DNA of 52,667 nucleotides from Candidatus Eiseniibacteriota bacterium (lineage in GTDB: Bacteria > Eisenbacteria > RBG-16-71-46), in NCBI GenBank assembly GCA_044222065.1, contig JBGAOA010000031.1, forward strand, positions 1-52,667, written 5' to 3'. The notes below the pieces were generated by a model. The model was not told where the DNA came from, ran no database searches, and was given only the letters and a program-made list of their open reading frames with translations. Below, piece after piece: positions 2,258-6,330 of this stretch. The position numbers and the translations under genes are program-made. The first letter of the stretch is position 1, and the number at the start of each line of letters is the position of its first letter.

Positions 2258-3472
2258 ATGAGCGCCGAAGCCGCCGCGGTCGTGGTCGCCGGCGCGGGCC
2301 TCGTCGGGCTCGCGACGGCGCGCGCGTTCCAGCGCGCCGGGCTCCGCGAGGTCGTCGTGCTCGAGGCCGAGGCCACCGTCGCCGCGCATCAGTCGGGCCG
2401 CAACAGCGGGGTCGTGCACTCGGGGCTCTACTACCGGCCCGGATCGCTCAAGGCGCGGCTGTGCGTCGCGGGACGGCTCGCGCTCGAGCGCTACTGCGCC
2501 GAGAAGGGCGTCGCGCACGAACGCTGCGGCAAGCTCGTGGTCGCGACGCGCGCGGAGGAGCTGCCGCGCCTCGATGCGCTCGCCGAGCGCGGCCGCGCGA
2601 ACGGCCTCGCCGGCGTGCGGCGCGTGGGCCCCGAGGCGCTGCGCGAGATCGAACCGCACGCGGCCGGGCTCGCGGGGCTCGTCGTGCCCGAGACCGGCAT
2701 CGTGGACTTCGTCGGCGTAGCGCACGCGCTCGCGGAGGACCTCGCCACGGACGGCGGACGCGTCGCGATCGGCACGCGCGTCCTCGCGGCTCGCGAGTCG
2801 GGGGGCGAGGTCGTCGTCGAGACGACGCGCGGCGCCCATCGCGCGCAGCGCTTCGTCGGCTGCGCCGGACTCCACGCCGACCGGCTCGCGCGCGCCTCGG
2901 GCGTCGAGCCCGGCGTGCGCATCGTCCCGTTCCGCGGCGAGTACCACGTGCTCGCGGAATCCCGACGTTCGCTCGTTCGACACCTCGTCTATCCGGTGCC
3001 GGATCCGCGGCTGCCGTTCCTCGGCGTCCACTTCACGCGTCGTGTGAGCGGCGAGATCGAGGCCGGCCCGAACGCCGTGCTCGCGCTCGCGCGCGAAGGT
3101 TACGGCTGGGGCGTCGTGTCGGCGCGCGATGTCACCGAGACGCTCGCGTGGCCCGGATTCTGGCGACTCGCGCGCCGCCACGCGCGCCACGCGGCGGGCG
3201 AGGTGCGCCGCTCGCTCGACCGCCGCGCGTTCGCCGCGGCGCTGCGGCGGCTCGTGCCGGAGCTTCGCGACGGCGACCTGCGCCCCGCGCGCGCCGGCGT
3301 GCGCGCCCAGGCGCTCGGCCGCGACGGCGCGCTCGTGGACGACTTCCAGCTCGTCGAGACGGCGCGGCAACTCCACGTGCTCAACGCGCCGTCGCCCGCC
3401 GCGACCGCCTCGCTCGCGATCGGCGAGTGGGTCGCGTCGCGCGCGCTCGGCCGCGATCTGACATCGCGCTGA
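2258..3472 (+). CDS. lhgO: L-2-hydroxyglutarate oxidase (FAD-dependent)
   Basis: GAGLVG Rossmann motif, HQSGRNSGVVHSGLYYRPGSLKARLC, YPVPDPRLPFLGVHFT, GVRAQA, HVLNAPSPAATASLAIG. Confidence 0.9.
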   Translation: MSAEAAAVVVAGAGLVGLATARAFQRAGLREVVVLEAEATVAAHQSGRNSGVVHSGLYYRPGSLKARLCVAGRLALERYCAEKGVAHERCGKLVVATRAEELPRLDALAERGRANGLAGVRRVGPEALREIEPHAAGLAGLVVPETGIVDFVGVAHALAEDLATDGGRVAIGTRVLAARESGGEVVVETTRGAHRAQRFVGCAGLHADRLARASGVEPGVRIVPFRGEYHVLAESRRSLVRHLVYPVPDPRLPFLGVHFTRRVSGEIEAGPNAVLALAREGYGWGVVSARDVTETLAWPGFWRLARRHARHAAGEVRRSLDRRAFAAALRRLVPELRDGDLRPARAGVRAQALGRDGALVDDFQLVETARQLHVLNAPSPAATASLAIGEWVASRALGRDLTSR

Positions 3473-3680
3473 CTTTCGCGCGCGACGAGCGCCGGAAATC
3501 GCGGCGCGCGCGCTCGCCCCGCGCGAAATTCCCACTGGACACGATGCGACCTCGTGCCGAAACTGCGGTCAGACCACTCGCGCGGCCACATCCGCGCGCG
3601 ATCCGGGCGGCTCGGGCGGCCGAATGGATCGGGAGGGTTGGGTCCCTCCGCGTCGCAGGCCCCGAAAAGGAGGTGATCCA

Positions 3681-3725
3681 TTGGACAGTAGTCGCCGTAG
3701 TTCGGTGGAGGTGGCGTCCTCGTAG
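3681..3725 (+). CDS. Putative 14-aa small peptide MDSSRRSSVEVASS (TTG start)
   Basis: AAAGGAGGTGATCCA immediately upstream, GGAGG 7 nt before TTG, TAG stop at 3723-3725. Confidence 0.45.
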   Translation: MDSSRRSSVEVASS

Positions 3726-3800
3726 GGGACCTCCGGACGCAGTGACGCCGAGGCGACCCCAGGACGGGGCAACCCAGCGCCATCAAGACCGAAAGTCTCG

Positions 3801-3835
3801 GGACTCCGGCTCGATTCGAGCCGGAGTCTTTTTTT
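3801..3835 (+). terminator. Rho-independent terminator
   Basis: GACTCCGGCTCGA-T-TCGAGCCGGAGTC inverted repeat followed by T7. Confidence 0.85.
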
Positions 3836-3848
3836 CACCCCGGAAGCG

Positions 3849-3894: not shown

Positions 3895-6330
3895 TTACTC
3901 GATCGCGGCGAGCCTCGCCGAGCGCGAACCGAACGCGCTCTCGAGCCGCAGGAAGTAGAGCCCCGCGGCGAGCGTGCGGCCGGCGTCGTCGCGCCCGTCG
4001 AAGCGCAGCGCGTGCTCGCCCGGGCCGAAGCCCGCGTCCGCGATCCGCCGCACGCGCCGGCCCGCGGCATCGAACACGCCGAGCGTCACGCGCGACGCGG
4101 CCGGGAGGCCGAAGCGCACGAGCGCGCCCGAGCCGCGCAGCGGGTTCGGAGACGGCGGCGCGAGGAACAGCGGCACCGCGACGCCGTCGTCCACGGCGAG
4201 CACGCCGTCCGGGATGAGCGTCGTCGCCGGCGACTCGTTGCCGTGCGTGTCCACGGCGGTGAGCTTGTAGACGAACGGCGCGCCGGCGGGATCGCTGAAG
4301 GTGAGGACGTTCGGCTCGGCGATGCGGTTCGCGAGCGAGGGCGTGAAACCGAGCCCGTGGCCGCGATAGAGCCGGTAGTTCGCGAGATCGCTCTCGAGGT
4401 TCGCGCCCCACTGGAGCAGCGACGAGCCCGAGGCGTAGAGGCCCGTGAACGGCGCGGGCGCTGCGGGCGCGAGATCGTCGACCGAGTAGCCCGAGTCCGG
4501 CGGCGACTCCCAGTGCCACCCGTAGTAACTGAAGGCCTGCACCATGTAGCTCGTGAGCGGATTGCTGCCCGCGATCGAGTCGCCGGTCGTCGCGGCGAGG
4601 AAGCTGTAGCTCGGCAGGTGGTAGGCGTTCTGCGAGCCGACGAACTCCCAGTAGCTCGTGTTCGTACCGTTCGGCACGGCGAGCAGCAGGGGCTGGCGGC
4701 GCATCGCCGCGGCCGCCGCGTCCTCGCCGCGCGTGGTGACCGCGCCCGCACGCAGCGCGTTCGCGACCAGCGAAGCCGGCGCCGAGCGGAACACGTAATA
4801 CCCGCCGATGTTCTCGAACGCCGGGTCGGTGTCGAGCGGGCTCGCGTCCCAGGACACTTTGACGCGGCCGCCTTGATCGTTCGGTACGTCGGCGACGTCC
4901 GTGACCCACGGTTCGGCGCCGAGGAAGCCCCAGCGGTCCACGTGCTGGACGCCGGCGTGATTCGCCGACACCGGCGTCAGGAAATCCTCGAACACGAAGT
5001 ACGCGCCACCCTGCGTGTCGGGCACGAGCAGGAACGCGTGCGGGGCCGACGTGCCGCTCGCGAGCAGCGTGCCGCCATTACCCCACTGGCGCACGCCGGA
5101 GTCGCTGAGGCGCTGCGCCGAATAGTACGGGGTGCCCGACGCGCGGTAGTCCTCGAACGCGACGATCGTTCCGCCGAAGCCGTCGGCGACGACTGCCGGC
5201 AGGGCCTGCTGCTGGAGCCCGGACGCGACCGGGACGCCGTCCGTGGCCCACTGCGCGAGGCCATAGAACGGATCGAGCCGTTGTGCGTAGACGTCGGAGA
5301 GTCCGCCGCCGGGCCGCGAGTCCGTCCACGCGATCACGACGCCGCCCGCGAGGTCGTTCACGATGCGCGGCGAGGTTTGTGAGCTGCCGTCCGTGCAAAC
5401 GGGCAGACCGTCGGAAGCCCAGTATCCGATTCCGCCCTGGACGCGGCGCGCGTAGATGTCGAAGCCCGAACGCGTGTCCGTCCACGCGACGACGCTGCCG
5501 TTCGAATTGTCGGCGCAGATCGTGGGGGCGAACTGACTCCCGACCGCGGTGCTCAGGGCCACACCGTTCGTGCCCCACGAGGCGAACCCGCCCCAGCTGA
5601 TGCAGTTCGCGTAGATGTCGCCGGCGTCCGTGCGGGCGTCGCGCCACGCGACGATGCCGCCCTCGCTCGGCGACACCGCGATCGCCGGCTGCGTCTGCTG
5701 GCCCGTGGCCGAGACGAGCGAGATCCCGTTCGCCGGCGTCAGCGCGACGCCGTTCGCGTACAGCAGCGCGCCGTACACGTCCCAGTCGGCCGCATTGCGC
5801 TTGTCGGTCCACGCGAGCAGCAGGTTCGAGAACAGGTCCGTCGCGGCCGTGAGTTCGACCTGGTCGCCCGCGGCGCCGCACACGAGCACCCCGTTGGACG
5901 TCCACGTCGTCACGCCGTTCGCATTCACGCTCTGGGCGTAGATGTCGCTGTTGCCCGACCGGTAGTCCTCCCACGCGATCAGCGCGCCGCCGCGCACGTC
6001 GGGCAGCACGACGATCCGGCCCGGGTTCCCGGTCGCGGTGCAGATCGCGACTCCCGTCGAACCCCAGAGCTTGTTGCCGAAGTGGTCGAAGCGCTGGGCG
6101 CGGATGTCCTGATCGGAAACGCCCGCCGTCGTGTACGCGACGATGAGTCCGCCCGAGCCGTCGCGGACCGCTTCGGCGCCGGAACCCGTGCCGACGTAGC
6201 TCGGAACGAATCCGGTCGAAGGATGGACTTCGAGGCTCACCGCGGGATCGTGGGACCAGCGCGCGGCGGCGGGAGACGAGACGAGGACCGCGGCCGCGAG
6301 GGCCGCACAGGCGATGCGAATCGTGCGCAC
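3895..6330 (-). CDS. Secreted repeat (probable beta-propeller) protein with FlgD-Ig/T9SS-tail-like C-terminal domain
   Basis: Signal peptide; about 8 repeats of DxxGGxxxAWxDxR...DIYAQR...W..GVxxC; C-terminal PNP...DAAGRRVR...FDGRDDAG...GLYFLRL; GGAGG upstream. Confidence 0.8.
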   Translation of the reverse strand: MRTIRIACAALAAAVLVSSPAAARWSHDPAVSLEVHPSTGFVPSYVGTGSGAEAVRDGSGGLIVAYTTAGVSDQDIRAQRFDHFGNKLWGSTGVAICTATGNPGRIVVLPDVRGGALIAWEDYRSGNSDIYAQSVNANGVTTWTSNGVLVCGAAGDQVELTAATDLFSNLLLAWTDKRNAADWDVYGALLYANGVALTPANGISLVSATGQQTQPAIAVSPSEGGIVAWRDARTDAGDIYANCISWGGFASWGTNGVALSTAVGSQFAPTICADNSNGSVVAWTDTRSGFDIYARRVQGGIGYWASDGLPVCTDGSSQTSPRIVNDLAGGVVIAWTDSRPGGGLSDVYAQRLDPFYGLAQWATDGVPVASGLQQQALPAVVADGFGGTIVAFEDYRASGTPYYSAQRLSDSGVRQWGNGGTLLASGTSAPHAFLLVPDTQGGAYFVFEDFLTPVSANHAGVQHVDRWGFLGAEPWVTDVADVPNDQGGRVKVSWDASPLDTDPAFENIGGYYVFRSAPASLVANALRAGAVTTRGEDAAAAAMRRQPLLLAVPNGTNTSYWEFVGSQNAYHLPSYSFLAATTGDSIAGSNPLTSYMVQAFSYYGWHWESPPDSGYSVDDLAPAAPAPFTGLYASGSSLLQWGANLESDLANYRLYRGHGLGFTPSLANRIAEPNVLTFSDPAGAPFVYKLTAVDTHGNESPATTLIPDGVLAVDDGVAVPLFLAPPSPNPLRGSGALVRFGLPAASRVTLGVFDAAGRRVRRIADAGFGPGEHALRFDGRDDAGRTLAAGLYFLRLESAFGSRSARLAAIE

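Follow-up and report, generated by a model that had tools for sequence, protein, structure and literature searches.

In Bradyrhizobium, the small mRNA rreB spans 165 nt and combines a 17-nt complement of the 16S rRNA 3′ end with a GTG start codon and a 14-codon open reading frame (ORF); it is found in the ribosomal pellet, co-sediments with 30S subunits and is weakly translated, and exchanging its start codon for a stop stabilises it, making its turnover start-codon-dependent (PMC5711450). An analogue with 18 codons, rreR, occurs in other Alphaproteobacteria, including Caulobacterales, and for both RNAs the authors state that the function is not known (Hahn et al., RNA Biol 2016/17, PMC5711450). 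When later literature was searched for rreB, rreR or 'ribosome-regulated expression', the only relevant match was the original paper. Two Rfam families also enter the comparison. Ms_IGR-5 (RF02471) has been validated in M. smegmatis, where it is NAD-capped and described as uncharacterised (bioRxiv 10.1101/2021.12.14.472595), appears among small RNAs (sRNAs) under cold stress (PMC10454040) and has an Rfam match with RNA-seq support in Streptomyces lividans (PMC8079986); the passages on Ms_IGR-5 in this literature draw no link to an extended Shine-Dalgarno (SD) sequence or a mini-ORF. CC2171 (RF01867) has been confirmed by northern blot in Methylorubrum (bioRxiv 10.1101/2022.01.24.477521). Here we describe an autonomous RNA gene, with its own promoter and intrinsic terminator, at about positions 3571-3836 (+ strand, ~265 bases) of a 52,667-nt stretch of DNA, hereafter the window (contig JBGAOA010000031.1 of assembly GCA_044222065.1, from a Candidatus Eiseniibacteriota bacterium). 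It is probably a ribosome-docking small mRNA of the rreB/Ms_IGR-5 kind, enlarged here to a 'long form' that is typical for one family of Eisenbacteria. The kind itself is known and functionally unsolved; what is new is the long-form variant.

The most conspicuous element of this gene is an extended SD at 3666-3680 (+; 13-nt core at 3667-3679). The sequence, AAAGGAGGTGATCCA, is a perfect 15-nt complement of the 16S 3′ tail, as the sequence-only reading of this DNA had pointed out, and the match is exact against the 16S 3′ end of the same genome (read from locus L001). It is conserved in relatives and, the rRNA gene aside, is the longest such complement in the whole genome (4,210,817 bases, 71.8% G+C), where the next ones measure 13, 12 and 11 nt and the SDs of ordinary genes reach up to 10-12 nt. 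Since a 13-mer with at most two mismatches is not rare within the window (at least one match in 37 of 100 shuffles), what makes the element significant is that it is exact, unique genome-wide and conserved. For its duplex with the 16S tail, the computed energy is -27.0 kcal/mol, against -10.7 kcal/mol for a plain GGAGG context, and the single change seen in the SD core, A to G at 3676, retains a G-U pair with the 16S rRNA. The complement is broken at 15 nt by the TTG start codon, GTG-start relatives gaining one more base through the first G of theirs. A second exact copy of the 13-nt core lies elsewhere in this genome, outside the window and in another context, on the minus strand of contig C34 (L002); no start codon was found at SD spacing in the flank inspected. 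Very long SDs are not exclusive to the small RNA in this phylum: the same 13-nt core followed by ATG precedes two ordinary genes in families f16 and f17, L130 (351 codons) and L136 (66 codons), the product of the latter having a hydrophobic N-terminus and several cysteines.

The TTG begins at 3681, 7 nt after GGAGG, and opens the 14-codon mini-ORF that had been reported directly behind the complement (3681-3725, +; MDSSRRSSVEVASS). Its sequence reads TTG-DSSRRSSVEVASS-TAG, with the stop codon at 3723-3725, and its length falls within the 14-18 codons of the very short ORFs that directly follow the extended SD in rre-type genes. Among 55 distinct long forms, the ORF has 14 codons in 52, 13 in two and 15 in one, and ends with TAG in 53, with TAA in one and with TGA in one, while stops interrupt the other two frames in 26 and 49 of them. 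In-frame stops are avoided: when codons 3-7 are shuffled, a mean of 11.8 of the 43 distinct segments carry one, and none of 5000 shuffles was free of them. Across the phylum, the ORF occurs in seven length classes between 11 and 17 codons, all of them whole codons, and the homologous stop is found in 85 of 86 sequences.

The peptide itself is not conserved. There is no excess of variation at third positions (entropy 0.73, 0.51 and 0.59 at codon positions 1, 2 and 3); codons 3-7 are hypervariable, codons 8-14 are nearly invariant at all three positions, synonymous ones included, and the sole common amino-acid change, A/T at codon 12, corresponds to a G-C to A-U covariation in helix P6 (see below). 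The conserved part of the ORF contains an internal SD-like motif, GGAGGTGG (3707-3714, +), the AGG core of which ends 11 nt ahead of the stop codon and 8 nt ahead of the last sense codon. The distance from core to stop stays at 10-12 nt in 85 of 86 sequences, despite ORFs of 11-17 codons, and the motif is read in all three frames (in 63, 11 and 2 of 76 distinct ORFs), yielding unrelated C-terminal peptides. Whole-codon lengths, together with a motif read in three frames, mean that selection keeps a frame open from a fixed start to a fixed stop and, separately, a nucleotide motif; at the sequence level, this is the signature of translation mattering as an act and not for its product. On this comparative evidence, selection acts on the RNA fold, on the 13-15-nt 16S complement, on the start codon located 7 nt downstream and on a frame kept open for ~14 codons, and not on the peptide sequence.

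Relatives of the RNA are widespread in the phylum. A BLAST search against 60 related genomes returned 19 near full-length matches with 71-84% identity, all in the window's own family f1, and, at E≤0.01 and with weak partial matches included, some match in 22 of 36 f1 genomes. A pattern scan of species-representative genomes gave 47 loci, 26 of them titled Candidatus Eisenbacteria and the rest 'uncultured bacterium' or labelled otherwise. Under strict filters, the long-form core model R1 detected the RNA in 44 of 151 phylum genomes (37/59 in f1, 5/12 in f17 and 1/1 in f8), and no long form in the remaining families of this sample. A bare pattern, consisting of the 13-nt SD core, one nucleotide and ATG, GTG or TTG, is present in 123 of 206 phylum genomes (122 of 205 if G038, an f3 genome flagged as unpublished, is excluded), nearly always once, and reaches 38/41 in f11, 7/10 in f3 and 61/88 in f1; the reversed control produced 1 hit. 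We examined 33 pattern loci, leaving the ordinary genes L130 and L136 out of the ORF counts. The other loci are short forms, which lack the 5′ helices P1-P3 and start ~8-10 nt before the SD; they keep a mini-ORF of 11-17 codons with its start, its stop and the GGAGGTGG-type motif inside it, and, beyond it, an AATCC-type junction, the P6 partner strand and the terminator. P6 is the sole helix that RNAalifold finds in short forms, and it covaries there.

The comparative set comprised 55 unique long-form and 28 unique short-form relatives. The short-form model R2 was built from alignment A4 (28 rows; the long forms L138 and L139 were excluded, and L131, one of 29 short forms listed, was not aligned). 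It matches the window with 29.1 bits (E=1.1e-6) and other long forms with up to 36.1 bits, against 14.3 bits for an antisense 16S end used as control; R1 in turn matches the short form L129 at 21.9 bits, the E-values of both models being rough owing to a shortened calibration. From these reciprocal matches it follows that the long and short forms are homologous, as far as their sequences tell. The domain formed by P1-P3 and a pseudoknot, absent from the short forms, would then be a 5′ add-on. The P2/P3 junction of the long form (window 3625-3637, GGATCGGGAGGG) resembles a segment within the ORF of short forms (GGATCGCGGAGG, for example in L172), which hints that the 5′ domain may have arisen by duplication of the internal motif. 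In one genome (G159), a second, partial long-form match (L128, model positions 66-169) is cut off by the end of contig C175, which may reflect either a duplication or a split in the assembly. Near the short-form RNA of four relatives lies an FMN riboswitch (RF00050, 88.8-103.8 bits, above its cut-off) (L146:1200-1333, -; L148:958-1087, +; L170:310-467, -; L171:932-1101, +), in L170 only ~30 nt away and on the same strand; it does not adjoin the window's copy and is apparently an unrelated neighbour.

The fold was derived by comparison. From 20 full-length sequences, RNAalifold predicted 66 pairs, of which 20 show compensatory changes; R1 then aligned 67 matches, 55 of them distinct, in which pairs were counted per named helix, and the whole structure beat all 500 column shuffles as well as all slid controls. 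All of the following elements lie on the + strand. The 5′ domain begins with hairpin P1 (3579-3585 with 3592-3598), for which RNAalifold reports compensatory changes, followed by P2 (3599-3605 with 3625-3631), in which several pairs change on both sides and still pair, and by P2a (3609-3612 with 3618-3621), which P2 encloses. Hairpin P3 (GGAGGG/CCCTCC, 3632-3637 with 3644-3649) shows double-sided changes in 6/6 pairs, with 100% of cells paired. The P3 loop forms a pseudoknot (TGGGT 3639-3643 with ACCCA 3772-3776) that links the 5′ hairpin to the 3′ domain and has at least four Watson-Crick pairs in 55/55 distinct sequences, one of which (L129) is invalid; the apparent 'covariation' of L129 was discarded, its supposed loop sitting in its promoter. 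In the divergent sequences L039, L040 and L076, the pseudoknot strands are altered in letters and still complementary.

Two mutually exclusive helices involve the mini-ORF. P5 (3677-3686 with 3700-3709) hides the start codon; it has 10 pairs, three of them with double-sided changes, 97% and 88% of cells paired, and a 13-nt loop formed by codons 3-7. P5′ (3702-3706 with 3788-3792; double-sided changes in 4/5 pairs, 94.9% of cells paired) stacks on P6 (3710-3717 with 3777-3784; 3/8 pairs, 96.6% of cells), and together they constitute a long-range helix that closes the 3′ domain and has codons 8-13 as its 5′ strand. Within this domain lie P6a (3718-3719 with 3727-3728), P7 (~3730-3753), a variable hairpin taken from the window sequence alone as relatives align poorly here, and P8 (3757-3760 with 3766-3769), obtained from the comparative fold. 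Forcing P5 or P5′ gives a mean energy difference of -1.5 kcal/mol (n=19, range -16.6 to +10.0); roughly half of the sequences have P5 in their minimum-energy fold, and roughly half have P5′. Mean unpaired probabilities in the ensemble are 0.17 for the start codon, which is thus paired most of the time, and 0.38 for the 5′ part of the SD, which is free in part.

This fold bears on several structural proposals made from the letters alone. The stop codon had been placed in a hairpin loop, which is the loop of P6a, and the strong terminator, then given a 13-bp stem, is found as a stem of 14 pairs (3800-3830) before a T-run. Masking of the start codon by 3623-3630 through pairing with GATCCATT is not borne out: comparison favours P2, in which GGATC at 3626-3630 pairs with the upstream GATCC at 3600-3604 and shows compensatory changes. 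For CCCTCC, two partners had been suggested; the hairpin with GGAGGG stands as P3, with covariation in all six pairs, whereas pairing with the SD is lost in lineages carrying GGGCGAG/CTCGCC. That second pairing was rejected: it appears in the single-sequence minimum-energy fold and not in the centroid, and is impossible with a CTCGCC strand. The 'GCAA-capped' and 'GAAA-capped' hairpins are better described as P8 plus the pseudoknot strand ACCCA, and as the P5′ 3′ strand ACCGA, respectively. The unit, finally, does not start at 3623; its true start lies ~50 nt further upstream.

The RNA is an independent, expressed, single-copy gene. Homology among relatives spans ~3575 to 3835, and their conserved upstream boxes (TTGACA, a 17-nt spacer and nAnAnT) align with -35 TGGACA (3536-3541) and -10 GAAACT (3559-3564) of the window, on the + strand and likewise separated by 17 nt, which would put the transcription start near 3571-3572; a strict sigma-70 promoter scan of the window gave no match. 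The intrinsic terminator occupies 3800-3836 (+; the stem-loop at 3800-3830 and the T-run), and relatives show strong covariation in its stem. Having a promoter and a terminator of its own, the unit has the layout of the stand-alone small transcripts of the rre type. There is one copy per genome. The host gap measures 422 nt and lies between a gene for an FAD-dependent oxidoreductase (2258-3472, +; Pfam DAO match) and a convergent ORF (3895-6330, -) of 811 residues, the sole Pfam match of which is a C-terminal FlgD Ig-like domain (FlgD_ig, 34.1 bits). No flanking gene is conserved in 37 oriented loci, where the largest cluster of related ORFs covers 6 loci; neighbours were clustered from ORFs outside the RNA unit, as antisense ORFs over the RNA had confounded an unrestricted version.

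Metatranscriptomes contain the stretch in 14 RNA runs from 4 studies. In four of these runs, each from a different study, contigs identical to the window at every position span 3589-3821, 3583-3808, 3480-3792 and 3587-3798, and the flanking genes have no identical contigs in the same four runs, regions without metatranscriptome contigs not being counted as silent. Three of the four contigs start at 3583-3589. The simplest reading is a discrete, abundant transcript of ~230-265 nt. The first description of this locus holds as an observation, once its limits and some of its pairings are corrected; its interpretation holds in part.

Taken together, these data lead us to infer that the functional product is the RNA and not the peptide, and that the fate and action of this RNA are set on the ribosome. 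By analogy with rreB, the window RNA would bind 30S subunits. The single-stranded 5′ part of the extended SD could seed pairing with the whole anti-SD tail and give the RNA a stable seat on the 30S subunit. Initiation at the weak TTG would be gated by the two near-isoenergetic folds, P5 hiding the start codon and P5′ freeing it, and a translating ribosome would have to unzip P5′/P6, the 5′ strand of which is codons 8-13. With the stop codon in the A site, the second SD-like motif would lie 8 nt before the P-site codon, which is normal SD spacing; the anti-SD might thus be re-captured at termination, and this could hold the ribosome or hand it back. Possible outcomes include ribosome holding, control of the RNA's own decay, and action of the 3′ domain on other targets.

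A number of points weigh against such a ribosome-docking mRNA. The experiments on 30S binding and translation concern rreB, and no Eisenbacterium has been cultured. The rre genes are defined by a perfect complement of 16-17 nt (at least 16 nt, reaching the first base of the start codon), and that of the window, at 15 nt, is shorter. The sequences compared are related, so that shuffling makes the support look stronger than it is; an NTG start with A, G or T as first base was a requirement of the phylum pattern search; and the constant spacing between internal motif and stop could merely reflect conservation of the P6 helix. Contigs cannot fix the ends, strand or level of an RNA, and the contig of run X3 reaches upstream to 3480, just past the oxidoreductase stop codon, suggesting some read-through from the upstream gene or a second start. 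RF02471 gives no match to the window locus at E≤10 and none in its own genome, and RF01867, the best of the weak Rfam matches, scores 24.2 bits on the window, far below its cut-off of 75. Lastly, overexpression of rreB had no effect on growth, and simple titration of ribosomes was deemed unlikely by its authors (PMC5711450).

Other explanations of the locus were considered. Were it an ordinary micropeptide gene, with the 14-residue peptide as product and an RNA structure that merely tunes expression, one would understand the open frame and its near-constant length in family f1, where MDS...SVEV[AT]SS recurs; RreB and RreR peptides, moreover, are reported to be conserved within clades (PMC5711450). 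Codon periodicity, however, is missing, codons 8-14 hardly vary even at synonymous positions, the only amino-acid change that is frequent covaries with its RNA partner, and conservation is as high in the RNA outside the ORF as within it. Other families have unrelated peptides (...GGGCS, ...ARCLVR, ...CEVPER), since they read the internal nucleotide motif in other frames, and we find this explanation improbable. The sequence-only reading had left a choice between a structured RNA that binds 30S subunits and a regulated micropeptide gene; the stand-alone structured RNA holds, and the micropeptide gene is unlikely as proposed, its peptide sequence being unconserved and the motif read in three frames. 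The idea of a 30S-binding RNA or a regulated micro-ORF matches the experiments on rreB, namely its co-sedimentation with 30S subunits and its weak translation (PMC5711450).

An untranslated riboregulator or sponge, in which the frame is incidental, could act as a decoy for CsrA through its GGA motifs, soak up anti-SD-like sRNA seeds or do nothing more than trap 30S subunits. The sRNAs of the CsrB/RsmZ type, which sequester CsrA/RsmA, present many GGA motifs in conserved hairpin loops. Although a CsrA gene exists in the genome and the RNA contains several GGA motifs, GGA is absent from its conserved loops (P3 has TTGGGT, and the loop of P8 varies), and this class is not supported; a 13-15-nt match to the 16S tail also goes far beyond a CsrA site. 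An extremely stable SD duplex might indeed block rather than promote translation, as argued for rreB, but in-frame stops are avoided and all changes in start-to-stop length are of whole codons, even where the internal motif shifts frame, so that the whole group of untranslated mechanisms has a low probability. We are similarly doubtful of a ligand or signal sensor, in which the 5′ domain (P1-P3 and the pseudoknot) would act as an aptamer or thermosensor setting the P5/P5′ balance, and hence translation of the mini-ORF: short forms lack this whole domain and keep everything else, the window has no Rfam riboswitch match, and there is no downstream gene to benefit, even if the domain is conserved, covarying and pseudoknotted and the two alternative helices, P5 and P5′, have similar energies. 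That the locus encodes a leader peptide or attenuator acting in cis on a neighbouring gene has next to no probability. A short ORF followed by a terminator does resemble ribosome-dependent attenuators, but the next gene is convergent, no co-directional regulated gene follows the terminator, the flanking genes differ among the 37 loci and the unit has its own promoter; contradicted by gene order, this candidate was rejected, in line with the earlier remark that a convergent neighbour excludes a leader, and the loci share no conserved neighbours.

The ribosome-docking small mRNA has identifiable kin among described RNAs. The window itself gives 0 Rfam matches at gathering score, and the sequence-only reading could not assign the RNA to a known family; its relatives supersede that statement: short forms exceed the 45-bit gathering score of RF02471 in L132 (62.5 bits), L168 (52.0) and L137 (49.1), and L145, L143, L129 (38.5 bits), L140, L170 and L141 are significant below it. 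The design had, besides, been published as rreB/rreR. In the phylum sample, RF02471 is above cut-off in 11 of 151 genomes and reaches E≤0.001 in 21; in seven f1 genomes with an RF02471-scoring short form, R1 gives nothing or a weak match at the same place. The window is connected to RF02471 through intermediate sequences, R2 matching the window, R1 matching L129 and L129 matching RF02471. By sequence similarity, then, the short forms belong to, or border on, Ms_IGR-5. The likeness extends to the order of motifs in the Ms_IGR-5 consensus, which runs from an extended SD close to the 5′ end through an internal GAGGTGGCTG motif, CGCTAG, an AATCC-type junction and CAG.CACC to the terminator. The long form of the window differs in adding P1-P3 and the pseudoknot, and its link to the family is only transitive, through R1 and R2; Rfam, furthermore, describes Ms_IGR-5 as actinobacterial, whereas the present RNA comes from Eisenbacteria. 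With CC2171, a Caulobacter sRNA, the RNA shares a 14-nt motif plus start codon and a terminator, a likeness at motif level only, since the RF01867 model gives a signal at the antisense 16S end as well (18.2 bits). Given the Caulobacterales analogues of rreR (PMC5711450), CC2171 is probably the Caulobacter rre analogue.

RNAs with an extended SD and a mini-ORF are therefore not an alphaproteobacterial curiosity, the strict pattern being single-copy in 123 of 206 genomes of an uncultured phylum, and three uncharacterised entries that go by separate names, rreB/rreR and the Rfam families Ms_IGR-5 and CC2171, become connected across three phyla. It is a bolder and rather unlikely proposition that Ms_IGR-5, rreB/rreR/CC2171 and the long and short Eisenbacterial RNAs form one widespread class of ribosome-resident RNAs, a global regulator of the 30S pool. 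If it were true, these RNAs would be for the ribosome what 6S RNA is for RNA polymerase: the whole anti-SD tail would be captured, the mini-ORF would let the captured ribosome run on a short 'treadmill', and the second SD, set at SD distance from the last sense codon, would re-capture it at termination, so that occupancy, release and RNA decay would report and tune the initiation capacity of the cell.

As to rreB and rreR, the comparison concerns a shared design as published. Like them, the Eisenbacterial RNA is a stand-alone transcript with its own promoter and terminator, an SD covering the whole 16S tail, a non-ATG start, a tiny ORF and a ribosome-binding site partly buried in a conserved hairpin (PMC5711450). 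Its genomic context is unconserved, as is theirs, except in Bradyrhizobiaceae, where the context of rreB is called quite conserved (PMC5711450). It differs in a complement of 15 instead of 16-17 nt, since its start is TTG instead of GTG, and in peptides that are not conserved, those of rreB and rreR being reported as conserved within clades. Compared with the 165 nt of rreB, its ~265 nt include an extra 5′ domain, a pseudoknot and a long-range helix, and it belongs to another phylum. Selection maintains full pairing with the 16S tail, a start codon, a frame that stays open for about a dozen codons irrespective of the peptide, a second SD-like motif whose distance from the stop is fixed, and a helix that has to be opened by translation. 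This is a concrete and testable design for an RNA that works on the ribosome, and Mycobacterium, Streptomyces and Bradyrhizobium offer culturable carriers.

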